From a virus (lineage: Duplodnaviria; Heunggongvirae; Uroviricota; Caudoviricetes), in the IMG/VR virus record IMGVR_UViG_3300031417_000379: DNA of 23,208 bases; one strand, written 5' to 3'. Of this stretch, positions 6,377-23,208 are shown piece after piece. The position numbers and the translations under genes were made by a program. Below the pieces are notes generated by a model. The model ran no database searches and had not been told where the DNA came from. It worked only from the letters and a program-made list of their open reading frames with translations. Each line of letters begins with the position of its first letter. Within the stretch, counting starts at the first letter, position 1.

Positions 6377-6385
6377 CACTATCTG

Positions 6386-7084: not shown

Positions 7085-7091
7085 GAGGCTC

Positions 7092-7100: not shown

Positions 7101-7110
7101 CAGGTTTCTG

Positions 7111-9139: not shown

Positions 9140-11215
9140 TCACCGGCTAGAGTCGGCCTCAAGCGCAATTTTCTGGGCTCGTACGCGGGCTGCTTCGGTG
9201 ATGCGCTTGGTTCGGAAGGTCTTGTTCTTGTACAGGAACTCCTGAAGTCTTCCTAGAGCCTTCATCATCATTACAGCATCCGCGGTTGCGGCATGCGCTC
9301 CTGCGTAAGGAACCCCGTTATCCTCCGCGAACGACTGTAAGGATGAGTCATCCGAGCGAGTCATCAAGAAACTAGCAAGCTTGCGCGTATCAAGGATAGT
9401 GATTTCACCGGCCTCTTTCGCCTCAAGGTAGCCGTTGAGATGAGCGGCGAAGAAACGATCTTCGAAGCTTGCGTTGTGAGCGACCAGCGTGCCGGACTTC
9501 AAAAGTTCGAGCACGTCGTGCTGAACCTTCGGGTCATCAAAGCGAGGTGCACCGACGATCATATCCGAAGAGATACGGTGGATGTCGTACTCCCCGAGTC
9601 CAACGCCAGCAAGTGCCTCAGTCGGAACATCGTGAAGGGTGCTGTAAACAACCTCCGTCTCCCCGTCGGAGTTAAGACGGGCGATGCCGGTCTCGATGAT
9701 TCGGCCGGTGCGAGGCGAAGTAGTAGTGGTTTCTAGATCAACTCCGATGAGCGGACGCTGTCGAGTGGAGGGGTCGTGCTGAGCAAAGACTGTGACAGCA
9801 GCACGCTGGAACTCGGTCTCAGTGAGCATTCGACCCTTTTCGACCTTGAGCGCCTCGATTGAGGTGACAAGCTGCTCCTTAGCCTCCGCGGGAGTAATGC
9901 CGGCGTAACCAGCGTAGACATCAGCAATGGCGTCGTAGTCGTTGGTGAGCTTCATGCCACGCTTACGTCGAGTTCGGATCTCTTCGCCGGCCTTGAGCTT
10001 CGCTCGCTTCTCCTGCATAGAAATCCAAAAAGCATCCGTCGCTGAAATCATCTCTTCGATCTCCGCGCGCAGTCGAGGATCGTCCAAGGAGAAGTTATAC
10101 TCCCGGTAATCGTTGTCGTCGAGTACCGCCACAAGCTTACCGTAGCTAAGGCCACCGTTATAAGCGTACCAGAGCACCTGCTTGCGATACCCCGCCGGTA
10201 CGCCGAAGATCCCAAGGGCTTCGGGGCCCCACTTTGAAGGATCTGAACCGGTCTTAATCTCGAGGATTCCCTCGGGTACGCCTGACTCGTCGAGGAATAG
10301 GCCGTCAAAGTTAGCGTGACGATACGGTGTCTTCGAGTTGTGCCAGGAAGTCTTGCAGAAAGCGACACGAAGCTCAGGGTGCTTAATGGCCACCGTCTGA
10401 CGGATGTACTCCTCCCAGGCGTTACCTCGACCGATGCCGGAGCGCAGATCCCAGCTATCGGGCGGAGTTCCGTTGAGCTCGTCAAGGCCAAGCTTGGAGT
10501 TCACCACACGAGAGTAGTTTGTAGAAGCCCATTCCTTGTCTACGCGAAGGATGGCTCCCACATCGGAGCCACCGATACCGCTGGCGCGAGCAGCATGCCA
10601 CTCCGGAGAGTTTGTTTCGTACTCGCCAAGAGCCTCGAGATCGTTGAGCTTCTTTTCAGTGAATTCTACGAAGGTGCCATCGGCTCGTTCGATGCGCTCC
10701 TGAAGGATAGAGGAGGCAAGCGCTGCCTGAGCTGTTAGTGCTCGGTACTCGTTAAGCTGTGCCCAGAGGAAACGCATGGTTTCGAAGCGCTCGCGGAACT
10801 CGAGCGAGAACTTGCGGATGGCGAATCGCGCCTCCTTAGCCACAGCTTTGTTCACGAGCTTTGAACGATTACGAGCAGCCTCAAGTTCGTTGGCCAGGTG
10901 ATCGACCTCGACCTTGAGCTCCGCACGACGAGCAAGAGCATCACGGTAAACCTGAGCGTTAGCACGCTGTTCAACCATCGATCGGAGGCCACTGTAATCT
11001 TGCGCCGCGACGAGACGAACAAGCTGTGCCTGAGCTTCGCGCTCTTTCAAAGAGCTAACGATTGAACCTGAAAGCTTCTCTCCTGCTGTCTGAGTGAGAA
11101 AGCTAAAAATCCCAGCATCCTCCGTCGTAAGAACCAATGTGTAGGAGTCGACGGGCGAGCTATCTTTGTACTCTGCTACTTCGCCGGTGGCTACGTTCAA
11201 ATGGAGCTTGGTCAC
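9140..11215 (-). CDS. Fusion protein: N-terminal coiled coil, YqaJ/lambda-exonuclease-like domain and C-terminal DEDDh (DnaQ-like) exonuclease
   Basis: YqaJ motifs: WHAARASGIGGSD, GNAWE, HANFDG, LEIKT, YRKQVLWY. DEDDh motifs: GVDLETT, HNASFEDRF, HAATADA. GTG start with RBS AAGGAG. Confidence 0.85.
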   Translation of the reverse strand: MTKLHLNVATGEVAEYKDSSPVDSYTLVLTTEDAGIFSFLTQTAGEKLSGSIVSSLKEREAQAQLVRLVAAQDYSGLRSMVEQRANAQVYRDALARRAELKVEVDHLANELEAARNRSKLVNKAVAKEARFAIRKFSLEFRERFETMRFLWAQLNEYRALTAQAALASSILQERIERADGTFVEFTEKKLNDLEALGEYETNSPEWHAARASGIGGSDVGAILRVDKEWASTNYSRVVNSKLGLDELNGTPPDSWDLRSGIGRGNAWEEYIRQTVAIKHPELRVAFCKTSWHNSKTPYRHANFDGLFLDESGVPEGILEIKTGSDPSKWGPEALGIFGVPAGYRKQVLWYAYNGGLSYGKLVAVLDDNDYREYNFSLDDPRLRAEIEEMISATDAFWISMQEKRAKLKAGEEIRTRRKRGMKLTNDYDAIADVYAGYAGITPAEAKEQLVTSIEALKVEKGRMLTETEFQRAAVTVFAQHDPSTRQRPLIGVDLETTTTSPRTGRIIETGIARLNSDGETEVVYSTLHDVPTEALAGVGLGEYDIHRISSDMIVGAPRFDDPKVQHDVLELLKSGTLVAHNASFEDRFFAAHLNGYLEAKEAGEITILDTRKLASFLMTRSDDSSLQSFAEDNGVPYAGAHAATADAVMMMKALGRLQEFLYKNKTFRTKRITEAARVRAQKIALEADSSR

Positions 11216-11266: not shown

Positions 11267-11623
11267 ATGGACCTACAAGCGTCAATCGACTTTATACCTC
11301 AGGCGGATGTCGAGGTCATGCTCGACCTAGATCGCGAAGCTCTTGAAGAGCTAAGTGATGCTAAAGTCTTGCTTTCGTTGAAGCTTTCAGATGGAGAGCT
11401 TGTGTTCCCGGCCTTCCAGTTTCAAGCCGGGTCTCTACACCCAAGACTCATTGTATCATTCCAGAAGTTTGACGCAACAACCGACGGGTGGTTTGTTGCT
11501 AGCTGGTTCCACCGCTGGAATGAGAATCTCCGCTCAATCCCTGCAAGACTCATCGAAGAGCCGAGTGGAATTGAGCGGATCATCTTAGCGATCACTACAG
11601 AGCAAAGCTTGGCTAAGCTGTAG
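11267..11623 (+). CDS. Rv2175c-like / Xre-MbcA-ParS C-terminal-like small protein, possibly DNA-binding or antitoxin-like
   Basis: LVFPAFQF, DGWFVASWF and N.NL...PARLI resemble these actinobacterial families. The N-terminal helices could form an HTH. Assignment is from memory of motifs only. Confidence 0.5.
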   Translation: MDLQASIDFIPQADVEVMLDLDREALEELSDAKVLLSLKLSDGELVFPAFQFQAGSLHPRLIVSFQKFDATTDGWFVASWFHRWNENLRSIPARLIEEPSGIERIILAITTEQSLAKL

Positions 11624-12854
11624 CCTCCTTGAGAGCTTTCGTATAGGCTCTGAGGGAAAGGCTCGGCAGGTCTGTAACGTGGCGTGAATCAGTCACCCAG
11701 TCACCGGTACGGTTGCCCATGCTCGAAACACGCAGCATTACACCGTACTTTCGAGCGCGGATGCCGTTACGCGAGATCGGCATACTTCCACTGAGAATTT
11801 CTTTAGGAGTCGGGGCATCATCGAGGCTTGAAAGCTTACTAAAGTCGCCGATAACGAGAGCTCGAGCAGCGCTGTTCTGAATGCTACCTACGTTCTCCTT
11901 GTGAGCGTTATGGATAGTCATCGGCTCTGTCTGGCTAACTCCGCCGAACGCGACAACAGCGGATTCTTCTGGGAGAGTTGGACGATCAGTAGGGATTTTG
12001 TCAAGCTCTCCATACTCGATACGGACGGAGGCTCCTGAAAGCTTTGGCGAGCCGTCTTTCAGAAGTCGTAGGCGCTCTGCCTCCTCAGGCTTGGTAGCAA
12101 ACGCCTGGTACTTGGGGCGGAAGTAGAAGATCCGATTACTGGTCTTTTCAATGAGCTCAGTAGCTTTTGGCCCAGGTGTGATCTCAGCCACGGTGGCTCG
12201 TGAAGTGTAAGTCTCGATCTGAGTACCGTTAGTTTTCTTGATGCTTAGATGGTACTGCTCACCGTTAAGAGCCACCACCATATCTACCTTCGGCTTTCCG
12301 CCAGAAGGGATATTCCCCGTCGGCATGAACACCTCTACTCCTTCGTAGCGTGAAAGAGCTGCGGCTAGCACGTACTCGTTCTTGAAGCCGTCTTCTTTCT
12401 GCTGTTCTGCGGCGGCTAGAAAAGCTTCTGAAGCGCTCTGATCCTCACGTAGCTTCATCGGCATAGTCTCAAGCTGCTTAAGCATCGCCTTGTGCTGCCG
12501 ATCTGACTCCTCGGAGAAAGCGTCAATACGTTTGACAAAATCCTCTGAGAGCTCGACGTGAGGTGTTAGGTCAAGGTAACCGCCGGTGATAGCCTGACGA
12601 GAACTTCTTGGAAGCTTTTTCAGGTGCCCTCGCACAGCGGTGTTCTTTTTGAGCGCAATTCGAGAACTATCTGGACCAGCAGTCGTCTTTCGCAATCCCG
12701 GTACTCCGTGAGCCTGTTCGAGCTGTTCTTCTGAGCGCTTTACCGCCTCAGCTAGACTGTCAAAGTGCTCAGCCTCTCCACCGAACGGGCAACGACCTTG
12801 AGTAGCAGCGCACTTTCCTGCTTCTCCTGCTTCGTTTATGTGATACTTAGCCAT
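11613..12854 (-). CDS. N-terminal MAKYHIN Cys/His module fused to a probable PD-(D/E)xK endonuclease (HinP1I/MspI-like)
   Basis: N-terminus MAKYHINEAGEAGKCAATQGRCPFGGEAEHFDSLAEA. Catalytic-like series DGFKNE ... KVD ... SIKK ... TQIE. RBS GGAGG. Confidence 0.6.
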   Translation of the reverse strand: MAKYHINEAGEAGKCAATQGRCPFGGEAEHFDSLAEAVKRSEEQLEQAHGVPGLRKTTAGPDSSRIALKKNTAVRGHLKKLPRSSRQAITGGYLDLTPHVELSEDFVKRIDAFSEESDRQHKAMLKQLETMPMKLREDQSASEAFLAAAEQQKEDGFKNEYVLAAALSRYEGVEVFMPTGNIPSGGKPKVDMVVALNGEQYHLSIKKTNGTQIETYTSRATVAEITPGPKATELIEKTSNRIFYFRPKYQAFATKPEEAERLRLLKDGSPKLSGASVRIEYGELDKIPTDRPTLPEESAVVAFGGVSQTEPMTIHNAHKENVGSIQNSAARALVIGDFSKLSSLDDAPTPKEILSGSMPISRNGIRARKYGVMLRVSSMGNRTGDWVTDSRHVTDLPSLSLRAYTKALKEATA

Positions 12855-12872
12855 GAACGCCTCCGATAGACT

Positions 12873-12881
12873 TTTCTAACA
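12873..12881 (-). promoter_or_regulatory. TGTTAGAAA motif upstream of a tagged gene
   Basis: The identical 9-mer occurs at 18833-18841 and 184-192, each upstream of a minus-strand gene. Confidence 0.4.
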
Positions 12882-12936
12882 TAGCCTGCGTTTTTGGTAG
12901 GATGAAGACACATGGCTTTACTAGGAGTTGCACCAT

Positions 12937-13239
12937 ATGAACACCAACGATTCGCGTTTCAACTTCGATGAGAAGCTTTTGAGTTCTTGCGATCAAATTG
13001 CAGAAGAACATTTAGGGAACGCTGCTCGTAAAAAGCTTTATCCCGAATACAAGTCAGTGCTTTACAAGCACAAAACTTTGGGCGACTACATGCTCGTATG
13101 CGCCGACGGATCAATGCTTTATGCACCATACGAAATCGGCGTTTCTATTCTCATCAACGGGTTTAAGAACGGTCTGCGCTCAGGCCCCAGCGCTGTTAAG
13201 CACGCTATGGAAAGTAGGGTGGCAGAGATGGCCGCCTAA
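12937..13239 (+). CDS. Hypothetical protein (100 aa)
   Basis: ATG 12937 with AGGAG 9 nt upstream, and extended -10 TGg-TAGGAT at 12895-12903. No function recognised. Confidence 0.7.
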   Translation: MNTNDSRFNFDEKLLSSCDQIAEEHLGNAARKKLYPEYKSVLYKHKTLGDYMLVCADGSMLYAPYEIGVSILINGFKNGLRSGPSAVKHAMESRVAEMAA

Positions 13240-13296
13240 GTAAGACACGCTCTGTATAAGCAGGCTCAAGACCTACTCTAACGCTGTAGAACTGCT

Positions 13297-13357
13297 TCTA
13301 AGCGGGTAAACCCATCGTCACGACACGTTATGTGATACAGGGTTTAACCCGCTTAGA
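13297..13357. terminator. Long imperfect hairpin between convergent genes
   Basis: TCTAAGCGGGTAAACCC pairs with GGGTTTAACCCGCTTAGA with one bulge. Weaker outer pairing CTGTAG/CTACAG extends to 13284-13370. Confidence 0.6.
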
Positions 13358-13372
13358 GCGTCAGCTACAGTT

Positions 13373-13906
13373 TCAGAAGAGGGGTACTTCAGGAGCCTCG
13401 AAGTTCTCTTTAGAGACTGTACGAGTCTCAGGATCGAGTATTAGAAGCGGCTTCTGAAGTTTACGAACCTTCTTTACAGCGGAAGCTGTTCCGCCGCTTG
13501 TCTCTGAACGTCGGTAGGCGGCGACACAGAGTGATGAGTCGCGGATCATAGCGTCGTTCCTAGCATGGAGATAACCGACGGAGAAGTGCGGTCCAACTAC
13601 GATCTCACGAGAGGCAGCTTTGCGAAGCTCTCTCCAGTTGTCGCGAGCAAAGCTGGGCCAAGCGTTTGGCTGCTCTTCGAACGGAATGTAAGCTGCTAAA
13701 GGAATATCTAGCTCAAGCGCAACCTCAGCCCAGATCGTGTCAGCACCTACGGCCATACCACTGATGATCTCTTCTAAGCCGTGAAAGGCTCGGAGGCGTT
13801 TCGCTGTACGTCGAAGTTCTTTCTGAAGCCAGAAAGTTTCATCGTGAGTAAACTTTCGATGCCCCGTGAGCATCACCTTTGGGAATAGTGGCGGCTGTTC
13901 AGCCAT
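13373..13906 (-). CDS. SLOG superfamily protein (YspA/DUF1273-like)
   Basis: VMLTGHR, ISGMAVGADTIWAEVAL, IPFEEQ, ARNDAMI, SGGTASAV. Confidence 0.85.
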   Translation of the reverse strand: MAEQPPLFPKVMLTGHRKFTHDETFWLQKELRRTAKRLRAFHGLEEIISGMAVGADTIWAEVALELDIPLAAYIPFEEQPNAWPSFARDNWRELRKAASREIVVGPHFSVGYLHARNDAMIRDSSLCVAAYRRSETSGGTASAVKKVRKLQKPLLILDPETRTVSKENFEAPEVPLF

Positions 13907-14342
13907 TACGCTGAGCCTCGAGATCGATCACAACAGATGTCTCAAGGAATGAGTCAGGATGATCAGAACTTCTCTTAAGGTAGCTATACCCACCGTCAAC
14001 GCTGACGGCCCCACAGCTGCACGTTTGGTAGTCATGCCGATGACGACTCTCGATAGCATCTCCACACGAGAGACAAAGAACCGAGTTCTGAAGAATCGCC
14101 TCTGAATCCATCTGAGAGAAGTAGTCGTCGGGGTCAAGGAAGAGCTCGCCTCCGACTCGGCGGATCATGTAGCGACCGTTGAAGTAAAGCTGTTCACCTC
14201 GGAGCGCGTGATCGCTCGGCTTATGAATCGGACACGAGTCTCCGGCACACTGCTTTACGTTGTGAGTCTTGACGAGAACCTGGCCACTATTAAGCAAGAC
14301 TCCGCCATCGGGGCGAACAAACGCATCCGGGCTTTTCACCAT
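13899..14342 (-). CDS. Hypothetical protein with two Cys/His clusters (C-terminal part DUF7695-like)
   Basis: HNVKQCAGDSCPIHKPSDH, and CLSCGDAIESRHRHDYQTCSCGAVSVDGG. Confidence 0.7.
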   Translation of the reverse strand: MVKSPDAFVRPDGGVLLNSGQVLVKTHNVKQCAGDSCPIHKPSDHALRGEQLYFNGRYMIRRVGGELFLDPDDYFSQMDSEAILQNSVLCLSCGDAIESRHRHDYQTCSCGAVSVDGGYSYLKRSSDHPDSFLETSVVIDLEAQRNG

Positions 14343-14345
14343 GAG

Positions 14346-14915
14346 TTATCCTTCGAGCTCCTTGACAAGCTTTGCGTAGCTCATCGCATACTTCTTACCA
14401 ACTTCTGTCGGTGTCTTCGGCTCGCCACGCAGGCGTAGGTCAAAGACACGGTTCAGCACGCTCACTGTCTTCGGGCACTTGTAGCAGCCCCAAACGTCTT
14501 CAGGCGCAGCGTGGAATCCGGTACGTTCACCACAGGTAGGGCAAACGCCGATCCAAAGATAACGATCTTCGGTGTAGCTCTCGGAAGAGGCATAAGCAAA
14601 AGCGCTGCCGTTACCGCCGAGCGCAACGAAGTTTGCTTCCCAGTCGGCGTCGTGGCCGTGGTTCGGCCCAGTGATGGCGTGAGCCACTTCGTGAAGCATC
14701 GTGTTCAGACGCTCCTGCTTCGTGGCGGTGAGCATGAAGAGAACAGAGTAGCTGATGCGTTGCGCAGTAAAATTACACTGACCAGCACGAGAATCAGCGT
14801 TGTCAAAACCCACCGTCCAGCCGACGATCCCATGCCCGACGAGAAGCTTAAGCGTTGACTGCTCAAGCTCTCGTCGAATAGCAAACCAGGCGGGGGAGTT
14901 GACGGTGATAGGCAC
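14346..14915 (-). CDS. SprT-like zinc metalloprotease
   Basis: SRAGQC, TMLHEVAHAI (HExxH), GHDADW, then CPTC and CYKC. GTG start. Confidence 0.85.
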   Translation of the reverse strand: MPITVNSPAWFAIRRELEQSTLKLLVGHGIVGWTVGFDNADSRAGQCNFTAQRISYSVLFMLTATKQERLNTMLHEVAHAITGPNHGHDADWEANFVALGGNGSAFAYASSESYTEDRYLWIGVCPTCGERTGFHAAPEDVWGCYKCPKTVSVLNRVFDLRLRGEPKTPTEVGKKYAMSYAKLVKELEG

Positions 14916-14921
14916 CAGATT

Positions 14922-14950
14922 ATCTTACGTTTTGTTCTACAGCTCGTCAA
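14922..14950 (-). promoter_or_regulatory. Near-consensus SigA promoter TTGACG-17-TAAGAT, leaderless for the SprT-like gene
   Basis: -35 at 14950-14945, -10 at 14927-14922, and GTG 14915 lies 6 nt after the -10. Confidence 0.7.
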
Positions 14951-16167
14951 CCTCTAAGGAAGTGAGCCATCGCGCGCCGCATCTCAGCTAGCTCCTGGAA
15001 TACCGGAGCCTTTGAATCACCATCGACCATCAGCAAGCTCGTAAGCTTTGGATCAATAGAACCTTCGACTGTACCATCCTGGATGCTTTCGATCCAAGTA
15101 TCCAACGTCGGCCGTTCAGTCCGCACGGCTATCAGAATCTGAACAATGTTCTTGAAAGTAGCCACGGGGTCATCAGTTTTGTTAATGACCTCGGAGTAAA
15201 GCGCCAGCACACTTCGCGTTCCCTCCGGAGGCCGCTTGATAAGTGAAGCGGGATTGCGTAGTGCGTGAAGGAGTACAAGGAAATCGTAGAAACGGAATGC
15301 TCCGGCGTTCTGAAGGAGCCAGTCAGCGAAGACTTCAATCTCGGCTGTTGAGGCATCGCCAAAGATAGCACGGACAGGGTTTGAGAAAGAACACTTTTCG
15401 ATACGGCGAAGTTCTTTCTCAACGAGTAACGTGGCTGGTTCAAGCTTGTCGAAGTTTGAATCCGATTCAGAGACAAAGAGCGTCACGAAGGCTCTACGAA
15501 GCTTACGCTCTATAAACTCAAACTTCGGAAGATCAACTTTGATCCCTTTGTGTGCTGCAAGGATAGCTTCAATCTTCGTGTCCACAGAGCTTGCAGAAGT
15601 CTTGTCACGCCCGATTGGGGAGCTAAAAATTGCGTTAACCTCAGCCAGATTACGCTTCGCTAAAGCGTTGTAGACAGCCTTCGACGCAGTAGCTCGAAGA
15701 AGCACCGGTGCGTCTGGACGCACGAAATCGTTACTGTATGTAAAGATTCCCTCGAAATGTGGAGTCTGCAGAATCTCTAAAGAGTCACAGCGGTTAAGAA
15801 GCTCTTCTCTGTGCTCGTCGAGCCAGTCACCGAAGACGAGTGAAAGATCGGTCTCTGCTAAGAAACCGTTGAGTGCGTGGCGAGCGAAGAGCTCTGATTC
15901 GCTGTTCTCGATAGCTCCAATAACGCCTCGAACTACCTCGGCTACCGTGGACTCATCCATCCAAGGGTTTGCTCGCTGAACCGGCTTTAAAGACGCCTCA
16001 TCGTTGTTGACCCGGGTGTAGCCAAAAGTTTTAGAGTCCTCTGCCTTACGCTTAAGGAGTTCGTCCTTCTCGACGCCCTGCACCAGAGCGAAAGGACGCC
16101 AGCCCTTTTCGTCTACTCTCCAGTGAGCGTGTGTCTCGTTCTTAGAACGTAGCTTGCGTGCGGTCAT
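14947..16167 (-). CDS. Hypothetical helical protein, paralogue of 16167..17420
   Basis: ATG 16167 overlaps the upstream TGA (TGATG). Collinear similarity blocks are shared with the neighbouring gene. Confidence 0.75.
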   Translation of the reverse strand: MTARKLRSKNETHAHWRVDEKGWRPFALVQGVEKDELLKRKAEDSKTFGYTRVNNDEASLKPVQRANPWMDESTVAEVVRGVIGAIENSESELFARHALNGFLAETDLSLVFGDWLDEHREELLNRCDSLEILQTPHFEGIFTYSNDFVRPDAPVLLRATASKAVYNALAKRNLAEVNAIFSSPIGRDKTSASSVDTKIEAILAAHKGIKVDLPKFEFIERKLRRAFVTLFVSESDSNFDKLEPATLLVEKELRRIEKCSFSNPVRAIFGDASTAEIEVFADWLLQNAGAFRFYDFLVLLHALRNPASLIKRPPEGTRSVLALYSEVINKTDDPVATFKNIVQILIAVRTERPTLDTWIESIQDGTVEGSIDPKLTSLLMVDGDSKAPVFQELAEMRRAMAHFLRG

Positions 16168-17420
16168 CAAAGTTTCTTTCCGAAGAGAGCTCGTCGGGTA
16201 GCAAGAATCTGAGTAGTGGTTGCAGGGTCATCGGAAGCTGCTACAAGAAGCACTGTAGTACTGGGCTCAAAGACAAAGTCAAGCTCGCCGTTAGCAAGAG
16301 CCTTCTTCCACTGAACAGCTGTCGGAAGAAGCTTGTTGTAACCAAGCCCGAGCTGGCCAACCATCTTCATAAGTTCGAGAGAGTTGTCCATCTCAACAAA
16401 GGCTAGGAAGAGCTGCGAAACATCACTCACAGTACCGGAACGCATAAAGATTTTCGGATTGCTTAGCGCGTAGATCACAAAGAACATTTCAGCAAAGGTG
16501 AACTCTTTAGCGTTATCTTCGAGATACGTCCCAATTTTGCCGAGGTCATTCGGCGGGAACTGTGCAGTAGTGTAGTTGATTGAGTCGTCGGCGATCCTGC
16601 TGTTTAGCTCTTCGCTGATCTCGGTAAAGGATTTGTAGACCTTAATAAGATCCAGATTACTGTGAAGCCCACCCGAAAGAAGTGAGGCTGAGAAAGCTCG
16701 CATGAGTTGGTTCGTGGCTTCCTGGCGGGACATGGGACGCTCGATCTTGCCTTCGAGCTCTAACCGTGAGTTCGTGAAGAAGATACCGATGCTCTTGTTG
16801 TCCACCGAGGTGGGGTCCTTAGCGATGTAGCGAAGTAAATTCTCTTTTGTCTCTTCTTGGAGGAAAGACTGGAGCTTCTTCGTGTTACTCCAACGGAACA
16901 CGAACGGAGAGCCTGGATTGTAGTGCTTGTAGACATCTTCAGTATGTGGATACATGGTGATTCTACTCTGACGAGCGTCTTCGAATAGATCGTCCCACTT
17001 TTCATCGAGGAAGTCTTTATAGACAGTGAACTCGTTCTGTGCTAGAAACTCATTGAGCATGAAGATCGAGAACTTTGTCGCTTCGTCACGCGGAAAGTTG
17101 TAAATACTCTTACTCATTGCGTGGCGAACAGCTACGGAAAGCTCCGGACGAAGTCGATCGAGAACAGCACGGTTAACCTTTTGTAGGTTATCGTACGAGT
17201 AGTCACGCTGTCTAGGCTGTTCAGCAGCAGGACCACCCCATACGCTACGTGACCAGAACGAAGGTTGAAGCGGAACCTTTTCAAGCTCAGCGTAGTACTC
17301 ACGTTCTGCCTCAGGAATCACTAGCTCCATATTGGAGTAATACCCTGTCACGTCTAGCTTCTTAAAGCTTACGTCACGACTCTCGTGTTCTGTCTGAAAC
17401 GGCTTCTTTGTGCGGCTCAT
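16167..17420 (-). CDS. Hypothetical helical protein, paralogue of 14947..16167
   Basis: 417-aa ORF with RBS AAGGAG. Shared blocks such as MLNEFLAQNEFTVYKDFLDEKWDDL. Confidence 0.75.
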   Translation of the reverse strand: MSRTKKPFQTEHESRDVSFKKLDVTGYYSNMELVIPEAEREYYAELEKVPLQPSFWSRSVWGGPAAEQPRQRDYSYDNLQKVNRAVLDRLRPELSVAVRHAMSKSIYNFPRDEATKFSIFMLNEFLAQNEFTVYKDFLDEKWDDLFEDARQSRITMYPHTEDVYKHYNPGSPFVFRWSNTKKLQSFLQEETKENLLRYIAKDPTSVDNKSIGIFFTNSRLELEGKIERPMSRQEATNQLMRAFSASLLSGGLHSNLDLIKVYKSFTEISEELNSRIADDSINYTTAQFPPNDLGKIGTYLEDNAKEFTFAEMFFVIYALSNPKIFMRSGTVSDVSQLFLAFVEMDNSLELMKMVGQLGLGYNKLLPTAVQWKKALANGELDFVFEPSTTVLLVAASDDPATTTQILATRRALFGKKL

Positions 17421-17423
17421 CGC

Positions 17424-17693
17424 CTACTCCTTGACTAGGATACTCTCTGGCTCTTGGCTAATCCGCTCACAGACTAACCGCTGCTTACTCGTAAGCGTTG
17501 ACGGATCTGCCTTCTCCATCATGAGCTTCCACCAAACAGTAGAGGCCATAGGACAGTTTGGACAGGTCCGAGGAGAGATGGTGCCGAAGACGCCCATGCG
17601 CGGTGGGTAATCCCATCCAGCGTTATAAGCTTCTTCCGGCTCGAGGATAGCCTCTGTTTCGCACACCTCGCAGATGTGTCGTAGCTTAGCCAT
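17424..17693 (-). CDS. Small zinc-binding hypothetical protein
   Basis: HICEVC ... GWDYPPRMGVFGTISPRTCPNC (two CxxC). Strong RBS AGGAAGGGAG. Confidence 0.75.
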   Translation of the reverse strand: MAKLRHICEVCETEAILEPEEAYNAGWDYPPRMGVFGTISPRTCPNCPMASTVWWKLMMEKADPSTLTSKQRLVCERISQEPESILVKE

Positions 17694-17696
17694 ACT

Positions 17697-17747
17697 CTGA
17701 ACTCCCTTCCTAAGACTATTTTACCGAGCCTTAGGAAGGGAGTTCAG
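17697..17747 (-). promoter_or_regulatory. 18-bp hairpin whose 3' arm contains the SD of the 17693 gene; may also terminate upstream transcription
   Basis: CTGAACTCCCTTCCTAAG / CTTAGGAAGGGAGTTCAG perfect stem with a 15-nt loop containing TAAAAT on the minus strand. The stem ends 3 nt before the ATG. Confidence 0.65.
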
Positions 17748-17772
17748 TTGAGATCCCTGTAGATACCGCGTT

Positions 17773-18810
17773 CTACTTGCTGACAATCCAAAGAAGTCGA
17801 GCCTCGATGAGATCAAGGGAAGCCGCCACAGAGCTGTAAAGCATCGGATCCTGGATGTCAACGCTAGCGAAAGAATCGCGAAGCTTAGGAACAGTCCCAA
17901 GATACTTGACGCCCTGCTTCACTGTCTGTCGTCGAGACGACTCGAAGTCAGTGTGGCGAAGCCCAGCACCGTTATCGTGCATGTCGGAAGTCTTGTTGAG
18001 GAAGACATCCAGATCGTTAAGAGTGGCCTGAGCCACACCGTCGGCGTACTCCTCGTTCTTCTGCTCGATAGGCTTGGCGTTGCGAGCTTCCTTAGACTCA
18101 ACCGGGTGCGAAAGCTTGTTGACAGCTCGAGCCACGCGAGCACCGTAGTTGTCTTCAATGTGCTTAAGAAGGTGAGTACGAGCATCCTGCTCGTCGGTGT
18201 AAGTGATGCCGTTAAGATCACAGAACTTCTCTGGGCAGTCTTCGACCGTGTCGTGGAATACACCCATAACAACCTGGTCCGTGTCACGAACACCCCAACG
18301 GATCAAGCGCACAGCGTTACGGAGAGGGTGAGTGATGTACGGAGGACGCTTCTCGCCCGGAGCAGCACGACGGAACTGGCCCTCGTGGAGCTGGAAAGCA
18401 AGCTTTGCAGCAGTGTCAAGCTTCTCTACGTCGAGTCCGACGATGGCGGCTTCGTTGAGCAGAGCCTGGTGAAGTCCCTGAGCATCCAGCGACTTAAGCG
18501 GTGGAAGGTTTGCGAGATGAAGAACCCCGGTCTGGAGCTTCGGGGAGTTGAGCGTGGCCTTGTGGGTCATGAGAGTACCTTCCCTACCTCTGTAGCTTGA
18601 TCCTACCAGGTTTTCGGGAGTTTCACGACCGTCTGTGATACGACGACCTACAGACTGTAGTGTAGCTTCTGAGTTCGACGCTTCAAAAGCTTGACGCGCT
18701 TCAGCCGCCGAAGCAAAGTGCTGATCATCTCCAGCAAACGGGCATCCTCCGCTTTTGGCCGAGCACTTGCCTGGTTCGCCGGTGGTGGGGTTGATGTGGA
18801 ACTTCGCCAT
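17773..18810 (-). CDS. N-terminal MAKFHIN Cys/His module fused to a RelA/SpoT-type HD hydrolase (small alarmone hydrolase/Mesh1-like)
   Basis: AFQLHEGQFRR, PYITHPLRNA, GVFHDTVED, ARAVNKLS, NKTSDMHDN. N-terminus MAKFHINPTTGEPGKCSAKSGGCPFAGDDQHFASAAEA. RBS AAGGAGG. Confidence 0.85.
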   Translation of the reverse strand: MAKFHINPTTGEPGKCSAKSGGCPFAGDDQHFASAAEARQAFEASNSEATLQSVGRRITDGRETPENLVGSSYRGREGTLMTHKATLNSPKLQTGVLHLANLPPLKSLDAQGLHQALLNEAAIVGLDVEKLDTAAKLAFQLHEGQFRRAAPGEKRPPYITHPLRNAVRLIRWGVRDTDQVVMGVFHDTVEDCPEKFCDLNGITYTDEQDARTHLLKHIEDNYGARVARAVNKLSHPVESKEARNAKPIEQKNEEYADGVAQATLNDLDVFLNKTSDMHDNGAGLRHTDFESSRRQTVKQGVKYLGTVPKLRDSFASVDIQDPMLYSSVAASLDLIEARLLWIVSK

Positions 18811-18832
18811 GTTGTCGGCCTCCTTGGCGATG

Positions 18833-18841
18833 TTTCTAACA
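18833..18841 (-). promoter_or_regulatory. TGTTAGAAA motif upstream of the tagged HD gene
   Basis: Lies 22 nt upstream of ATG 18810; same 9-mer as at 12873-12881. Confidence 0.4.
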
Positions 18842-18974
18842 GATCAACAGAAGTTGCCTAGTGTCAGTCTAAGCGCTTCTAACGTATCCCTATGTCGTTA
18901 TGTAAAGACTAGGTCTTACGCTGTGAGAACAAAAGCTAGTCTCTTTGGCCTAGACTTTAGCGGAGTGCTAGTAA

Positions 18975-19018
18975 AACACTTACGGCCCTGCCTCCGAAGA
19001 AGTAGGGCCGTAAGTGTT
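18975..19018 (-). terminator. Intrinsic terminator-like hairpin
   Basis: 15-bp stem AACACTTACGGCCCT / AGGGCCGTAAGTGTT, with a short T run on the minus strand, just after the stop at 19028. Confidence 0.75.
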
Positions 19019-19027
19019 GTTTGGTTG

Positions 19028-19219
19028 TTACGAGCGACGAGCGTTCTGTCGGAGCGAGACCACAAGGAAGAGAGCCATGAGAGCCAGCGAAGCCGGGATT
19101 GCGGTCCAGATGGAGATGGCGGCCAGGTGAACGCCGACGAACGCGGCGGTGACGATAAGCATGGCGACGAGGAAACGGACGATGGAGCGGACGAGGATGT
19201 AAACCTTCGAGTGCGTCAT
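19028..19219 (-). CDS. Small two-TM membrane protein, probably leaderless
   Basis: MTHSKVYILVRSIVRFLVAMLIVTAAFVGVHLAAISIWTAIPASLALMALFLVVSLRQNARRS. The start lies 7 nt after TATAGT. Confidence 0.7.
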   Translation of the reverse strand: MTHSKVYILVRSIVRFLVAMLIVTAAFVGVHLAAISIWTAIPASLALMALFLVVSLRQNARRS

Positions 19220-19226
19220 GGCCCTA

Positions 19227-19254
19227 ACTATACACGCCTTCAGACAAAACACAA
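19227..19254 (-). promoter_or_regulatory. SigA-like promoter TTGTGT-16-TATAGT
   Basis: -10 at 19232-19227, -35 at 19254-19249. Confidence 0.55.
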
Positions 19255-19299
19255 CCGCCTCGAGCACCGAAGTACCCGAGGCGGTTGTGGAAGGCTAAC

Positions 19300-20376
19300 T
19301 TAGCCCAGCTTCTTCACGCTCTTGATGCGATCGATGCGGAAAGAACGGTGACCGTTACCCTCGAGCGGGAGCTCAAGCTGCACAAGCTTTCCATCGATAG
19401 AGGTCGGCTTGATTACGTAGACCTTCTCGATGCCGGAGCCTGAGACGTAGGTGACCTTAAGCTTGCGCTCCTTCTTGACAGCCTTCTTGAGCTTCTGCAC
19501 GAACTCCTCGTTCAGCTTCGGCTCAGCGGCAGGTGCAGGCTTCGGGGCCACAGGAGGAGTGTAGACCGGAGCCGACTTCTTACCGACCGTGGCCACAACA
19601 TCCGAGTCCTTCGTCACGACGAGGAGCACCTCGTAGCGAGCCACACGGATCTTGTGGAACGCTCCGTCCTGCGGGACAGCAACCACGTCACGCGGATTGA
19701 TGGCGTTAGCGGTAACGGTCGGGCCCCAGCTCTTAGCGTACTCGTAAGTACCGACATGGAGACCGACACCACAGCCAACCCCGGTGTTGCTGTTTACCGT
19801 GGAGCGAGCCATCTCGAGGATCGAGCCAGGTTTGTTCGGGAGGTGGCCGTTCATCGGCTTGTTGTCCACGATACCCGGGCCGGAGCGCTTCGAGGTGAGG
19901 TCGGTGAGAATGCCCTTGTAGGCGATGAAGTCGCCGTCGGGACGAATGGTGAGCCCGTGCTTCTGAATGAAGGTGTAGAGGCTCTTGCGCGACTCCTCGT
20001 TCGGGTTCTGAGCGAGCTTCTCGAGGAAGTTTACAAACGGCTTCCAGGAAGGAGCATCCGCGTCCTCGTTCTCGAGACGCACCAGGCCGATGATGTAATC
20101 AGCAAGAGCGTCGTGGAGAGCGTCACCGTCGAAGAAGAGGTTGCTGCCGTCGGTGGTGACGCGGTCAGAAAGTCGCTGAAGTCGTGTTGCGATGGACTTC
20201 ACCGGCTGGAAGAGGCTACGGATCTCGTCCGCAGGAGCCTCCTCGGCAAGTCGCTTCGTAAGGACACCGAAGTTGATGTCCGAAGAACCGAGGTTCTTTG
20301 TTTCACCGTCATCGAAGATAACAGAAAGACTCGGTCCGTTTGAACCGTTGGTTCGTGACCAGATATAAGACGTCAT
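19300..20376 (-). CDS. rIIB: rIIB-like protein with a C-terminal WYL-like domain
   Basis: FVNFLEKLAQNPN...SLYTFIQKHGLTIRPDGDFIAYKG, CGVGLHVGTYEYA, INPRDVVAVP, KIRVARYEV. A Pro/Ala linker is followed by KVTYVSGSG...IKP...RSFRIDRI. Lies downstream of rIIA. Confidence 0.85.
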   Translation of the reverse strand: MTSYIWSRTNGSNGPSLSVIFDDGETKNLGSSDINFGVLTKRLAEEAPADEIRSLFQPVKSIATRLQRLSDRVTTDGSNLFFDGDALHDALADYIIGLVRLENEDADAPSWKPFVNFLEKLAQNPNEESRKSLYTFIQKHGLTIRPDGDFIAYKGILTDLTSKRSGPGIVDNKPMNGHLPNKPGSILEMARSTVNSNTGVGCGVGLHVGTYEYAKSWGPTVTANAINPRDVVAVPQDGAFHKIRVARYEVLLVVTKDSDVVATVGKKSAPVYTPPVAPKPAPAAEPKLNEEFVQKLKKAVKKERKLKVTYVSGSGIEKVYVIKPTSIDGKLVQLELPLEGNGHRSFRIDRIKSVKKLG

Positions 20377-20408
20377 GCTGTTTGTACCCTTTCCAGTGGG
20401 ATCTAGTT

Positions 20409-20417
20409 ATTCTATCA
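20409..20417 (-). promoter_or_regulatory. Extended -10 promoter (TGa-TAGAAT) in the rIIA-rIIB gap
   Basis: TGn-TAGAAT with an A-rich upstream tract in a 65-nt intergenic gap. Confidence 0.55.
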
Positions 20418-20441
20418 AGCTTTGCTTTTTATTTGTAGGTG

Positions 20442-22592
20442 CTAGTTCTGCTCGGCGGCCTTCTCCGCCATGTAGCGATCAGCGGACCAGTTTACATAGG
20501 CCGCCGCCTCTGCTGAATCTTCGCTGCCGTTGTTAGTGAGAAGCGAGAACACTCCGCCGCGGTTACGGCCACGATCCGCGCGGAGCTTATCGAAGTCGAA
20601 GATTGCCTTGAGCGCAGCGGAAGCATCCGATGACTTCGAGTTATAGCTGTAGAGAACCATGCCACGCCAGAGGGGCTCTGCAAGGCGAGTTACATCTGCG
20701 GGGAAAAGAGCCTTTGCGTTATCGCTGAGGAGATTACTCCTGTCGAGCTTGCCGATGAACTCAAGCGTACGCATCTCCTTGGCAATGCGAGCAGCCTTCT
20801 TGAAGCGCTTGAGTCGATTCTTCACCGCTTCTTTCTGTTCAAGACTCAGCGTGTCGATGTACTCCTGAGGGCTAAGAACGTGCTTGTGAACACGCTTGAT
20901 GGTGATGAGTGCACGCTTGTTCTGAACAGCAAAGACCTGGCCGTTGAGATCGAAAAGATCGTTGAAGAGGAACACGAGAGAAGATGTCTCGCCGCCTTCG
21001 GTGAACATCACCGTAGGGCCATCAGCCTTAACAAGATCGCCAAGACGAGTGTTTCCCACTCGCTTGCTTTCAGCATTTACAGCGAAAACCGGCTCGAGCG
21101 CGGCACGCTTGATAGCTTCTGTGTCGGTGACCCGAGTTCGCGAAGCAGCGGACGTAACCGGCGCCTTCTTGATCTCAGAATACGTCACGATCTTTGAGGT
21201 GACCGGGTAAAGCTCGTCGTCCTCAGTAGTGAGTAGGATACCGAAGCCACGGTTGTGGTAGATACGGTTGCCGTTGGCATCGGTCTTGTTGATCCACTTG
21301 CTAAGCTCGTCGTTCACTACGGAACGAATGTACTTACGCTGAGTGTCAGGCGTGAGAGAAGCTTCAGCAGCGGTCACCTTGATAATGAGATCGATCTTCG
21401 AGCTCTCTACCTTAAGCGTGTCGGTGGTCATGAAGCGCGACTCATCCATGATACGAACAGAGCTGCCGTCCCTGTGAGCAGTGTAGTGCTTCTGTCCGAC
21501 GTAGCTGATCTGGGTAACATCTCGACCGTTGAAGAGCACCTTGAGCTGAGCGTGCTGAATGAACGGCGAATGCCCGAAGGCATAGGCTTCCTCAATGGTC
21601 TTCAGGTTCTTCGACTTGTCATCAATATAACCCTGAACCTCGGAAACGAACTCCTTGAGAACCTTAACGATGGCCTCAGTGTTCTCAGCCGAAGGTTCGA
21701 TGACCTCTCGTGAAGATGGGAAGGTCACATCGCCGATGTTCATCTTGAGAGCGAATTCCCCTCTCGTAGCGTCGATGAACTTTGCGTACTCGTAGTTATC
21801 GTGTGTGCGAAGTGTCTGATGCACCTTATCCGGCATCGGATACGAAACCGGCCCTACCAGCACACGGGTCTTGGGGCTACGGTAACCGTACCGGGTCCTC
21901 ACCGCGCCCTTACCGTCGATGATCTCGGACTTGATCACACCGTGCTTGAACTCGATAGCGTCCGTGAAGACAGAAGTAAAGTTGCCGTTGACGAGCTCTA
22001 CTTCCTCCGGTCGCCAGCCGTTGAGAACCTCGTTGATCTGGTTCTCGCTAAAGTTCCATCCGTTGGAGGCCACCACGGTAACCTTGACGCCGTTGCCTTC
22101 ATCGGTCGGCTTGTCACGAACCACAGCCTTGACCGAGAGGCCACCCTTGCTCGAGCGCTCGAAGACGAAGACGTTCTTGAGCCCGTCCTTGACCGCTACC
22201 ATGGTGTACTGATCGGAGATGGCGAGGGCCGACTTACCACCGATGCCGAAACCGCCGATGCCGAAATTGTCGCCGGACTTGGTCGAGTTCAGGAAGCTCG
22301 CATAGACGTTACGGACCTGGTCGTAGGACATGCCGACGCCGAAGTCTTCTACGATGAGGTTCTGCGAGAAACGCGAGGGGAGCGTTACCTTGACGGGGGT
22401 CTTCACGCCGGCTTCCACGTGGCTGTCGTGAGCGTTACTCACCCATTCACGGAGCGTGGCAAGCTCGGGGCTGTTGTAGTTGCGGATCAGGATCTGCATC
22501 ACCGATGCGAGCTTCGCTGAGTTCAGAGTTCCCTCGAAGGTCTCTCCGTCGAAGTTCGTGGTGTTCTCAACCTCTGGTGTCTTGATTTCCAT
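20442..22592 (-). CDS. rIIA: rIIA-like protein (N-terminal GHKL ATPase)
   Basis: LREWVSNAHDSH, EDFGVGMS, TKSGDNFGIGGFGIGGKS, GVKVTV, VTFPSSRE. 716 aa, immediately upstream of rIIB. Confidence 0.9.
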   Translation of the reverse strand: MEIKTPEVENTTNFDGETFEGTLNSAKLASVMQILIRNYNSPELATLREWVSNAHDSHVEAGVKTPVKVTLPSRFSQNLIVEDFGVGMSYDQVRNVYASFLNSTKSGDNFGIGGFGIGGKSALAISDQYTMVAVKDGLKNVFVFERSSKGGLSVKAVVRDKPTDEGNGVKVTVVASNGWNFSENQINEVLNGWRPEEVELVNGNFTSVFTDAIEFKHGVIKSEIIDGKGAVRTRYGYRSPKTRVLVGPVSYPMPDKVHQTLRTHDNYEYAKFIDATRGEFALKMNIGDVTFPSSREVIEPSAENTEAIVKVLKEFVSEVQGYIDDKSKNLKTIEEAYAFGHSPFIQHAQLKVLFNGRDVTQISYVGQKHYTAHRDGSSVRIMDESRFMTTDTLKVESSKIDLIIKVTAAEASLTPDTQRKYIRSVVNDELSKWINKTDANGNRIYHNRGFGILLTTEDDELYPVTSKIVTYSEIKKAPVTSAASRTRVTDTEAIKRAALEPVFAVNAESKRVGNTRLGDLVKADGPTVMFTEGGETSSLVFLFNDLFDLNGQVFAVQNKRALITIKRVHKHVLSPQEYIDTLSLEQKEAVKNRLKRFKKAARIAKEMRTLEFIGKLDRSNLLSDNAKALFPADVTRLAEPLWRGMVLYSYNSKSSDASAALKAIFDFDKLRADRGRNRGGVFSLLTNNGSEDSAEAAAYVNWSADRYMAEKAAEQN

Positions 22593-22628
22593 ACGGAAGC
22601 GTCTCTCCTGTAGCGGTCAGATAAGTCC

Positions 22629-22672
22629 ACTGTATCACGCTTATGCTCTCACCACAACAAGCTCCTACTCTT
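22629..22672 (-). promoter_or_regulatory. SigA-like promoter TTGTGG-17-TACAGT (extended -10) with the conserved upstream element
   Basis: -35 at 22657-22652, -10 at 22634-22629. The 18-mer AAGAGTAGGAGCTTGTTG matches the copy at 4554-4537. Confidence 0.65.
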
Positions 22673-22716
22673 ACGGCTACGACGAGTGGCGCCTAAGCAT
22701 CACTCGTCGTAGCCGT
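22673..22716 (-). terminator. Terminator-like hairpin
   Basis: Perfect 16-bp stem ACGGCTACGACGAGTG / CACTCGTCGTAGCCGT with a 12-nt loop, 9 nt after the stop at 22726. Confidence 0.75.
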
Positions 22717-22725
22717 TTCGAGAAC

Positions 22726-23208
22726 TCAGAGCTCTCCGGGGAACTCCTCTTCAAGCTTCACGCGATGAGCAGCCTTGCGGTTCTCCATGCGGCGTGAAAG
22801 CGTTGCGGCGAAGCCGGCGATGAGCCCGATGTGCTGTGCAGCCTCACGCTCATCCTTACCCCAGTTGTAGATCTGCTTTTCTCCAAGCTTCGGTGCGTAC
22901 TTTTCCCACTCCTCGCCGATGGTGACAAGAGCAAGCTGAAGTTCGTGCTCGTTGAATTGCCCGTAGTCCATAGCGTTACGTAGCGTTACCCAAGCGCGAT
23001 TCGGAAGCTGACGCGGTCCGATCGACTCGAGAAGAGCCTTCTGATCTTCGGAGAACTTAAGCGGCTCAGCTTCGTATTCAAGCTCGTACGAGCGTCTCGC
23101 GATCTCCGGCGAAGGGAAGTGATCCTTCTCTAGATCACCGAAGGGGCAGTTCTTTCGAGCCTTGCATACTCCAGGAGTGCCTTCTAGGTTGATGTGGTAC
23201 TTAGCCAT
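22726..23208 (-). CDS. N-terminal MAKYHIN Cys/His module fused to an unknown ~115-aa domain
   Basis: MAKYHINLEGTPGVCKARKNCPFGDLEKDHFPSPEIA. The ATG is at the last three bases of the window, so upstream signals are not visible. Confidence 0.8.
   Translation of the reverse strand: MAKYHINLEGTPGVCKARKNCPFGDLEKDHFPSPEIARRSYELEYEAEPLKFSEDQKALLESIGPRQLPNRAWVTLRNAMDYGQFNEHELQLALVTIGEEWEKYAPKLGEKQIYNWGKDEREAAQHIGLIAGFAATLSRRMENRKAAHRVKLEEEFPGEL

Follow-up and report, generated by a model that had tools for sequence, protein, structure and literature searches.

A Cys/His module at the N-terminus of unrelated proteins in giant phage-like elements: a candidate docking handle

Phages and conjugative elements encode so-called "polyvalent proteins", reportedly described by Iyer et al. 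in 2017. In the giant phage SPN3US, the N-terminal propeptides of ejected proteins are cleaved by the prohead protease at A-x-E (PMC7411985). Bacillus phage G shows a lineage-specific expansion of a zinc ribbon, to about 35 copies, for which a role as transcription factor or in DNA binding was proposed (Iyer et al. 2021, PMC7824862). The DNA analyzed here, referred to as the window, is the whole 23,208-nucleotide stretch of the IMG/VR virus record IMGVR_UViG_3300031417_000379, and several of its genes start with a small Cys/His module. We consider that this module, the header, may serve as an address tag or docking handle, folded and of zinc type, for the members of a polymorphic effector family, a reading to which we assign a probability of about 0.4.

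Three tagged genes in the window

One N-terminal module of about 45 amino acids heads three minus-strand genes (with ends at 23208, 18810 and 12854). A six-frame scan of the window with a module HMM identified exactly three copies (80-88 bits, E 1e-24 to 1e-26), and the next match was below 5 bits. Downstream of the module, BLAST comparisons among the three proteins showed zero similarity. The first-pass annotation, made from the letters of the sequence, had described three genes that share an N-terminal module and then diverge; the open reading frames, HMM scores and BLAST results agree with that description.

The first header copy (23077..23208, minus strand; 80.5 bits, supported by alignments) comprises residues 1-44 of a 160-amino acid protein encoded at 22726..23208 on the minus strand. 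The 112-amino acid cargo of this tagged gene 1 has no known family, and a match to DUF4348 was sub-threshold only. The gene sits directly upstream of rIIA, and the order module gene followed by rIIA is repeated in locus L016 and in the divergent locus L067. The second copy (18673..18810, minus strand; 87.7 bits) comprises residues 1-46 of a 345-amino acid protein (tagged gene 2, 17773..18810, minus strand), in which the module is joined to a RelA/SpoT-type HD phosphohydrolase resembling small alarmone hydrolases (TIGR00691, E 3.3e-10 over residues 135-199; phrog_990, metal-dependent phosphohydrolase, E 3.3e-11). The third copy (12720..12854, minus strand; 82.5 bits) comprises residues 1-45 of a 413-amino acid protein (tagged gene 3, 11613..12854, minus strand) with a 368-amino acid cargo that profile searches did not assign to a family: searches of Pfam, PHROG, NCBIfam and PADLOC were unmatched except for a PADLOC match of 14 bits, and a single-sequence AF2 run on residues 60-413 produced an unusable model (pLDDT 33.8). 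The header genes of the window stand among an RNA-repair island.

The window's module copies share 53-61% DNA identity, their longest common DNA word is 9-11 nt, and 33-45% of the identical residues are encoded by different codons. These results indicated that conservation acts on the peptide and that the module is not a DNA repeat, as had been proposed earlier on the basis of synonymous differences (GCG/GCT, ATC/ATA, CCG/CCC), all of which were found in the sequence.

A promoter-like sequence of the extended -10 type, TGTTAGAAA, precedes two of the tagged genes as an exact 9-mer, located 19 nt upstream of the ATG that starts tagged gene 3 (12873..12881, minus strand) and 23 nt upstream of that of tagged gene 2 (18833..18841, minus strand). 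The exact 9-mer has three copies in the window, each on the coding strand upstream of genes, an arrangement that is suggestive. As a statistically enriched motif TGTTAGAAA was rejected, the count with one mismatch allowed being no higher than in shuffled sequences. A strong terminator-like hairpin with an 18-bp stem followed by a T run is found after rIIB (19250..19289, minus strand), and would therefore place tagged gene 2 in a separate transcription unit.

Conservation, predicted fold and position of the header

The pattern His-x9/10-Cys-x5/6-Cys-x7/8-His, with flanking G, A and CP(F/Y)G residues, is present in the three window copies. Among 300 distinct copies of the module, H5, C15 and C22 are conserved in 100% and H30 in 99%, and these four positions top all others except the structural residues G10, A17, P23, G25 and A37. 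The earlier suggestion that the His, Cys, Cys and His residues are invariant and fit a metal site is thus extended to the family. His5, Cys15, Cys22 and His30 most likely bind one zinc ion, as judged from conservation and the predicted structure; CxxC knuckles are not part of the module. An AF2 model based on 50 sequences (pLDDT 81) has a beta-hairpin formed by residues 3-6 and 12-15 and a helix at residues 34-46, and the module is therefore predicted to be a folded mini-domain of about 45 residues, consisting of hairpin, loop and helix, that is uncatalogued. In a Pfam-A search at E<=10, two of the window's copies had no match and the third had only sub-threshold matches to DUF6233 and DUF7552. 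Searches of NCBIfam and, at E<=10, of PDB sequences were unmatched, a feature search of the ESM Atlas produced no usable match, and no description of the module was found in the literature searched.

The first 24 residues of the module carry a mean charge of +1.9, and the second half is acidic (-3.0). Cys accounts for 0.1-0.4% of the residues in linker and cargo. At positions 40-42, 66% of the copies have A-x-E, compared with a background of 0.8%. This tripeptide may be purely structural, since E42 lies four residues past R38 on the predicted helix.

Searches of metagenome cluster representatives (clusters at 50% identity) with the module profile identified 3,976 at E<=1e-3, of which 1,266 were at E<=1e-10. 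Of the 155 top proteins, 144 have the module from residue 1 onward, as do all three window proteins, and model position 1 coincides with a start codon in 108 of 131 copies at metagenome loci (102 ATG and 6 GTG). Internal, C-terminal or repeated copies were absent among about 300. Whether the module is always N-terminal, and whether its matches are tied to one cargo family, had been posed as checks in the first-pass annotation; the position is N-terminal throughout the copies compared, and BLAST clustering of the cargo of 291 non-redundant proteins gave 167 clusters, including 122 singletons. Folded metal domains are not usually confined to residue 1, and this strict position calls for explanation.

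The module genes are often organized in head-to-tail arrays, with up to seven genes in 14 kb or six in 5.4 kb; the gaps between neighbors on the same strand are mostly short, about 50 of 68 being under 170 nt. Such tandem arrays, and the promoter-like TGTTAGAAA common to the upstream regions of two window copies, would be expected if the header had no common biochemical partner and were a "gene-start cassette", portable and made up of a promoter, a ribosome-binding site and a first domain that expresses and folds well. Such a cassette would persist for historical reasons, spreading as genes are duplicated in tandem and their 3' parts replaced. The strict N-terminal position would follow automatically from this mechanism. 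However, the peptide is under strong purifying selection across very divergent lineages while the DNA, upstream regions included, is unconserved (53-61% identity), and conservation of four ligand positions at 99-100% in 300 copies is unexpected for a neutral passenger. For these reasons we find such a cassette very improbable.

Cargo, header decay and possible functions

The recognizable cargo domains are a 2H-SAK phosphoesterase, a Zeta/AAA_33 P-loop kinase, YqaJ and DEDDh exonucleases, HNH, a winged helix and an HD hydrolase. Profile searches of the PDB with the four largest cargo families gave best E values of only 0.05-0.9, and a nucleic-acid enzyme signature was not seen in most families, those four included. 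The description of the cargoes as nucleases and nucleotide-signal hydrolases fits only the recognizable minority, and most cargo families have no recognizable function.

GRF, PBZ and PARP-type fingers hold eukaryotic DNA-end enzymes on their substrate. The header could be a small nucleic-acid-binding zinc finger that holds repair, processing or nuclease domains on RNA or DNA, perhaps at broken ends or single strands. This function would be in agreement with the activity on nucleic acids or nucleotides of each cargo with a recognizable domain, with the mean charge of +1.9 in the first 24 residues, and with the location of the window's header genes within an RNA-repair island. Nonetheless, it does not account for the lack of internal, C-terminal or repeated modules among about 300 copies; the module's second half is acidic (-3.0), and most cargo families, the four largest among them, do not look like nucleic-acid enzymes. 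Moreover, nucleic-acid enzymes make up most of the recognizable proteins of mobile elements in any case, which makes their enrichment weak evidence. We regard the finger as the main rival to the docking handle, a possible but doubtful one.

Two proteins of the window had been proposed to carry degenerate headers. The N-terminus of the 2H-SAK phosphoesterase (gene at 4590-5135, minus strand; PF22547, E 8e-17 for the cargo) has a divergent, shortened header, H-x10-C-x5-C-x3-H, at 5052..5135 on the minus strand. Matched directly to the module HMM, the window protein scored about 2 bits and would have been missed, but the N-termini of 14 2H-SAK orthologues retain the H..C..C..H arrangement, and through their profile hhalign recovered the relationship to the module profile (95.5% probability, E 1.4e-8). 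The second protein is a YqaJ-DEDDh exonuclease fusion (gene at 9140-11215, minus strand), and the orthologue series identifies its N-terminus (11081..11215, minus strand) as a decayed relic that has lost both Cys residues. The window protein is absent from the list of direct HMM matches and its near-identical orthologue P0175 scored 4.5 bits; orthologue P0176 is decaying (11 bits), and orthologue P0177 has the full module with both Cys residues (41 bits). The header tentatively assigned to this fusion is therefore a relic of the module, and the window copy no longer has the two cysteines. The header decays in place while the enzyme remains intact, and so, judging from these sequences, it is dispensable for the enzyme.

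A dispensable header would also be consistent with a regulatory, stability or assembly module, i.e., a zinc or redox switch, a protease or chaperone recognition element that times early proteins, or a self-association domain that oligomerizes the cargo. Invariance of the four Cys/His residues in proteins where Cys is otherwise rare (0.1-0.4% in linker and cargo) points in the same direction, and the location of two of the three tagged genes just downstream of the common promoter-like TGTTAGAAA suggests co-regulated expression. A timing tag, however, would not require a folded domain of 45 amino acids whose conservation spans elements with 31-62% GC, and we consider this explanation quite improbable.

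We infer instead a handle function and a destination of the following kind. The constant header, combined with considerably more than a hundred unrelated C-terminal domains, constitutes a polymorphic multigene family. It would guide a variety of effector enzymes to one common partner or place, in the way that polymorphic toxins use their constant N-terminal parts and T4-like phages their capsid-targeting peptides. A plausible destination would be a carrier that takes proteins into the new host cell along with the element DNA, and the candidates for this carrier would be the capsid or the elements' type IV secretion-like apparatus. It is also observed that the recognizable cargoes nearly all act on nucleic acids or nucleotides, which counts against a handle in that it would fit a substrate-binding finger equally well.

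The module is restricted to uncultivated phage-like elements of 0.2-0.8 Mb, with GC contents of 31-62%, that have rIIA/rIIB and type IV secretion-like genes, and T4SS-type genes adjoin the module genes. Two MAG bins contain 16 and 19 copies, "Siphoviridae sp. ctHip2" has at least 11 module proteins, and the density is about 5 per 20 kb on contigs of 573 kb and 828 kb. None of 40 relatives of one MAG and none of 40 relatives of the other had the module, and 400 genomes of one phylum produced one marginal match. Searches of about 50,000 isolated phage records by megablast and tblastn, using the window and header variants, produced two chance-level matches only; scans of IMG/VR with degenerate patterns yielded zero matches, a count that does not prove absence as the patterns were strict. 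The MAG of 32% GC was discarded as a cellular carrier of the module, its 40 relatives being negative and its module contigs bearing rIIA-like and T4SS-type genes.

Capsid, portal, terminase and prohead-protease genes were not found on the module-bearing DNA scanned, which represents a small part of the elements. The T4-type prohead protease and gp23 (PF03420 and PF07068) had zero matches in the two MAG bins, an uninformative result since the control genomes were silent too, and matches to PF05065 and PF03237 were confined to contigs without modules. A "terminase" lead, phrog_2666, was rejected as evidence of packaging: the family matches 14 of 14 control genomes, and the open reading frame in L045 is a HerA/DUF87-type ATPase. 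An "actinophage virion" as the setting is an assumption, because the elements carry type IV secretion-like genes beside the module genes. Packaging into virions is a possible, putative version of the function of the header, suggested by the 66% of copies that end in A-x-E, like the propeptide sites of giant phages. It is unlikely, in our estimation, that the header would act as the general loading signal, marking all that the giant phage-like elements deliver to a new host with their DNA, by way of the capsid or the T4SS-like apparatus. The type IV secretion signals known so far lie, as a rule, at the C-terminus, which we counted against the handle reading. The initial idea of a portable tag on counter-defence enzymes was upheld in part, in that the header is portable, selected as a peptide, strictly N-terminal, joined to unrelated cargo and expanded far beyond the window.

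Were the header an address tag, sequence would suffice to list the effectors of these uncultivated giant elements, about whose biology almost nothing is known, and more than 160 cargo families, mostly without known fold, would become candidates for anti-defence or host-takeover activities. If it is a loading signal, the same approach would reveal an element's whole "first-strike" set of effectors, dozens of proteins whose folds are mostly unknown. Even as a nucleic-acid-binding finger, the header would be a domain that Pfam, NCBIfam and PDB lack despite its great abundance (about 4,000 clusters at 50% identity). At 45 amino acids, the header is of a size that suits quick biochemical and structural work.

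Comparison with known systems

The header has a simple topology in common with the Kunitz/BPTI-like fold: a C-terminal helix follows a beta-hairpin, and cross-links substitute for a hydrophobic core. Kunitz domains differ from the header in being disulfide-linked, secreted and eukaryotic. Fold searches of the module against PDB and AFDB gave only weak Kunitz-like topology (Foldseek E >= 0.35, VIA Z <= 4.0), a common small arrangement that is not evidence of kinship, and a Kunitz relationship was rejected. The header recalls the zinc ribbons of phage G, another small zinc-type module that was amplified, there to dozens of copies within a single giant phage genome. The phage G module is nevertheless a separate domain, described as a zinc ribbon, whereas the header has no CxxC knuckles; header variants of high and of low GC also gave no real tblastn match to the roughly 50,000 phage records, which should include phage G.

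Known trafficking domains were unmatched by the header in the Pfam-A search. Like the capsid-targeting sequence (CTS) of T4 internal proteins and Alt and the propeptides of SPN3US, the header is an N-terminal element common to unrelated proteins, which in those phages are delivered with the DNA. Those elements have an x-X-Glu end, and 66% of the header copies end in A-x-E, the motif of the SPN3US protease. However, the T4 peptide is short (10-20 residues), unstructured and without a metal site, and the SPN3US propeptides have 111-130 residues (PMC7411985), whereas the header is a folded domain of about 45. Neither has any sequence similarity to the header.

Compared with polymorphic toxins and polyvalent proteins, the header is much smaller and of metal type, and each tagged protein has one cargo rather than many domains. 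With these systems, which include the LXG, MIX, PAAR/Rhs and MuF-linked toxins, the tagged proteins have in common a constant N-terminus, C-terminal domains that are hypervariable and unrelated, and an arrangement of the genes in tandem, as well as cargo enriched in nucleases and nucleotide-active enzymes and a context of conflict and mobile elements.

A shared header and its copies in the window

The module of about 45 amino acids that opens unrelated proteins (hereafter the header, the remainder of each protein being its cargo) had no match in Pfam-A at E ≤ 10, nor among NCBIfam models or PDB sequences, and literature searches found no paper describing it. A profile search over 1.84 billion cluster representatives returned 3,976 matches at E ≤ 1e-3 and 1,266 at E ≤ 1e-10; nearly all of the best 150 carried the module at residues 1-45 of proteins of 65-446 amino acids. 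Among 300 distinct copies, H5, C15 and C22 were conserved at 100% and H30 at 99%, followed by G10, A17, P23, G25 and A37 (96-99%) and by E42 and N7 (about 90%). AlphaFold2, supplied with a 50-sequence alignment, predicted a confident small fold (pLDDT 81) composed of a hairpin (3-6/12-15), a CP[FY]G loop and a helix (34-46). Fold searches recovered just a weak Kunitz-like topology (Foldseek E ≥ 0.35, VIA Z ≤ 4). Residues 1-24 are basic (mean charge +1.9), the rest of the module is acidic (-3.0), and cysteine is scarce in linker and cargo. The simplest reading is one predicted structural metal site, His-x9/10-Cys-x6-Cys-x7-His.

The window is densely coding, predominantly on the minus strand, with a GC content of 49-61%. 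Every stop-to-stop frame was scanned, all filters off, with an HMM built from the three window copies and three metagenomic copies. Exactly three intact headers were found (80-88 bits; next match below 5 bits), in minus-strand genes at 22726-23208 (160 amino acids), 17773-18810 (345) and 11613-12854 (413). These are the genes named in the first-pass annotation; they start with the peptides quoted there and are unrelated past the header. Since the headers share only 53-61% nucleotide identity, use different codons at a third to nearly half of their identical residues and have no common DNA word longer than 9-11 nt, selection acts on the peptide, as that annotation had argued, and the copies are old paralogues rather than a DNA repeat.

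The same annotation saw degenerate headers on a 2H phosphoesterase and possibly on a YqaJ-DEDDh fusion. Neither N-terminus matched the HMM directly, and orthologues settled both cases in its favor. The 2H-SAK gene (4590-5135, minus strand) truly starts at the Met of MAKLH, directly after the kinase gene. The 14 orthologues compared all open with LH[YF]SP.LG..A[RK]C.....C[PAR][FY]..H, in which H, C, C and H never vary, and their N-terminal profile aligned with that of the module (hhalign probability 95.5%, E 1.4e-8). The header of the YqaJ-DEDDh gene (9140-11215, minus strand) is decayed: orthologue P0177 keeps the whole header, including the two cysteines (41 bits), in another orthologue the cysteines are gone (11 bits), and P0175, nearly identical to the window copy, scored 4.5 bits. 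On these orthologue comparisons, the tally is three intact headers, one divergent and one relic, the last showing that a header can disappear while the enzyme stays.

Other genes of the window were also inspected. The 2H-SAK gene lies in an RNA-repair-type island (2320-7162, minus strand) with an RNase T-like exonuclease, an R2K ATP-grasp, a PNKP-like P-loop kinase plus HAD phosphatase, and a Thg1-like 3'-5' polymerase. A HisRS-like gene also occurs on the related contig L028. Three minus-strand genes at 13373-14915, SLOG/YpsA-like, DUF7695 Cys-rich and SprT-like zincin, overlap or closely abut at their ends and look like one operon. The adjacent genes 14947-16170 and 16167-17420 (minus strand, about 410 codons each) overlap at the stop codon of one and the start codon of the other and match no family; they are old paralogues, their products sharing 26% identity over 327 amino acids (E 9e-16). 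A third exact TGTTAGAAA at 184-192 (minus strand) follows a perfect TTGACA by 17-18 nt and precedes an ATG by about 95 nt, resembling a complete promoter of the sigma-70 type that belongs to the element.

Cargo diversity and the role of the header

The module begins at residue 1 in 144 of 155 top-scoring proteins, and 291 non-redundant header proteins fell by BLAST into 167 cargo clusters, 122 of them singletons. Pfam matches among 45 cluster representatives comprised two cargo types only, HNH and winged helix, and none of the four most populous cargo families had a profile match in the PDB. Domain searches left the cargoes of the 413- and 160-residue window proteins without family assignment. 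Recognizable cargoes include the RelA/SpoT-type HD hydrolase of gene 17773-18810, 2H-SAK, YqaJ plus DEDDh, and a Zeta-toxin/AAA_33 P-loop kinase found on a 573-kb contig, in an ESM Atlas cluster and in the GenBank virus 'Siphoviridae sp. ctHip2'. Because few cargoes match any family, the earlier description of them as nucleases or nucleotide-signal hydrolases holds for the recognizable minority only.

Wherever headers are present they are multiple: at least 11 header proteins in ctHip2, 16 and 19 copies in two MAG bins, about 5 per 20 kb on contigs of 573 and 828 kb, and 134 in 335 kb of metagenome loci centered on header matches, the densest stretches having 7 in 14 kb and 6 in 5.4 kb. Most same-strand neighboring header genes in these loci are separated by less than 170 nt. 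A full-length MFS transporter (L055, 5333-7117, plus strand, E 2.5e-52), unusual in a phage-like element, lies inside a 14-kb stretch with seven header genes.

A constant N-terminus at a strict N-terminal position, hypervariable unrelated C-termini, tandem arrays and a mobile-element setting give these proteins the architecture of a polymorphic effector family, of which the module is the uncatalogued, folded, metal-type constant part. In such families it is the constant part that serves for addressing or docking. By that analogy, we prefer to read the header as an address or docking element, at a probability of roughly 40%. The main rival is a nucleic-acid-binding finger, which would suit the basic hairpin and the fact that nucleic acids or nucleotides are the substrates of all recognizable cargoes; it leaves the strict residue-1 position unexplained, and we consider it somewhat less likely. 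A regulatory, stability or oligomerization module is improbable, and a historical gene-start cassette more improbable still.

The virion-loading version of the address reading gains one new point of support. A-x-E at positions 40-42 ends 66% of copies (75% if S or G is allowed first), against a cargo background of 0.8% per position. The SPN3US prohead protease cuts after A-x-E, removing N-terminal propeptides of ejected proteins, and the T4 capsid-targeting sequence (CTS) is removed likewise (PMC7411985). The pattern may, however, reflect nothing more than a salt bridge between R38 and E42, which are separated by one helical turn.

Giant phage-like carriers

The header was not found in the approximately 50,000 isolated phage genomes searched, nor in IMG/VR in two scans with strict patterns; none of ten header clusters looked up was present in NCBI or UniRef. 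When 185,579 species genomes were scanned with a strict pattern, only 3 loci emerged, all in two MAGs; a single marginal match came from 400 genomes belonging to one phylum. The two species-representative MAGs, G001 (DUQJ01..., 'Clostridiales bacterium') and G002 (JAVBSF01..., 'Pararhizobium sp.'), include many giant-element contigs with 16 and 19 header genes. These contigs are likely binning carry-over in reference genomes, since 0 of 40 relatives of each carries a copy.

Carrier contigs range from 31 to 62% GC. Proteins of the window occur on contigs of the 0.2-1 Mb class, with relatives at 211, 220, 437, 573, 674, 740 and 828 kb, and its DNA recurs in phyllosphere, leaf litter, soil and plant metagenomes from 14 studies. 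The 828-kb contig (L026, JGI 3300062451, 828,236 bp) has the window gene set of PNKP-like kinase/HAD, 2H-SAK, RNase T, Prim-Pol and rIIA-like ATPase. If it is one element, a matter of completeness and possible concatenation, it would surpass the largest reported phage genome, 735 kb (PMC7162821).

Phage-type genes are common on header-bearing contigs. Several neighbors matched PHROG families, the window encodes rIIA (E 2.5e-53) and rIIB (E 4e-42), rIIA recurs in L067 and on G001 contig C200, and header-bearing ESM Atlas clusters are labeled Viruses/Uroviricota. The nearest isolate relatives of the window rIIA are from 120-135 kb Streptomyces phages (27-32% identity). At 19300-22592 (minus strand) the rIIA-like ATPase (716 amino acids) precedes an rIIB-like protein with a C-terminal match to a WYL domain (E 5e-5). 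L016, a near-identical contig, preserves the succession of header gene (112-residue cargo), rIIA and rIIB, and L067, a divergent element of 49% GC, preserves that of header gene and rIIA.

Capsid, portal, terminase and prohead-protease genes were not seen on the module-bearing DNA scanned. Genes of type IV secretion or pilus type share contigs with header genes and rIIA-like genes, and this holds for three lineages, whose GC contents are 32%, 47% and 49%. They include a VirB4-like AAA_10 ATPase (E 2e-42; G001 contig C31, 24570-25592, with four header genes), a VirD4-like match (E 7e-8; C200, 10030-10863) adjoining the rIIA-like gene, a TrbL/VirB6-like protein (E 4e-8; L036, 7045-9288) adjoining header genes on the 211-kb contig, T2SSE/T2SSF ATPases on the 573-kb contig (L025, 15188-17823) and C31, and a HerA/DUF87 ATPase in L045. 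Giant phage-like mobile element is therefore the most fitting name for the carrier.

The closest functional analogues of the header include the T4 CTS together with the head propeptides of giant phages, the N-terminal trafficking domains of polymorphic toxins, and polyvalent proteins. Bacillus phage G has a zinc-ribbon expansion of roughly 35 copies (PMC7824862). That zinc ribbon and the header are different domains, isolated phages having yielded no header, but the expansion is the closest genomic analogue of header multiplication.
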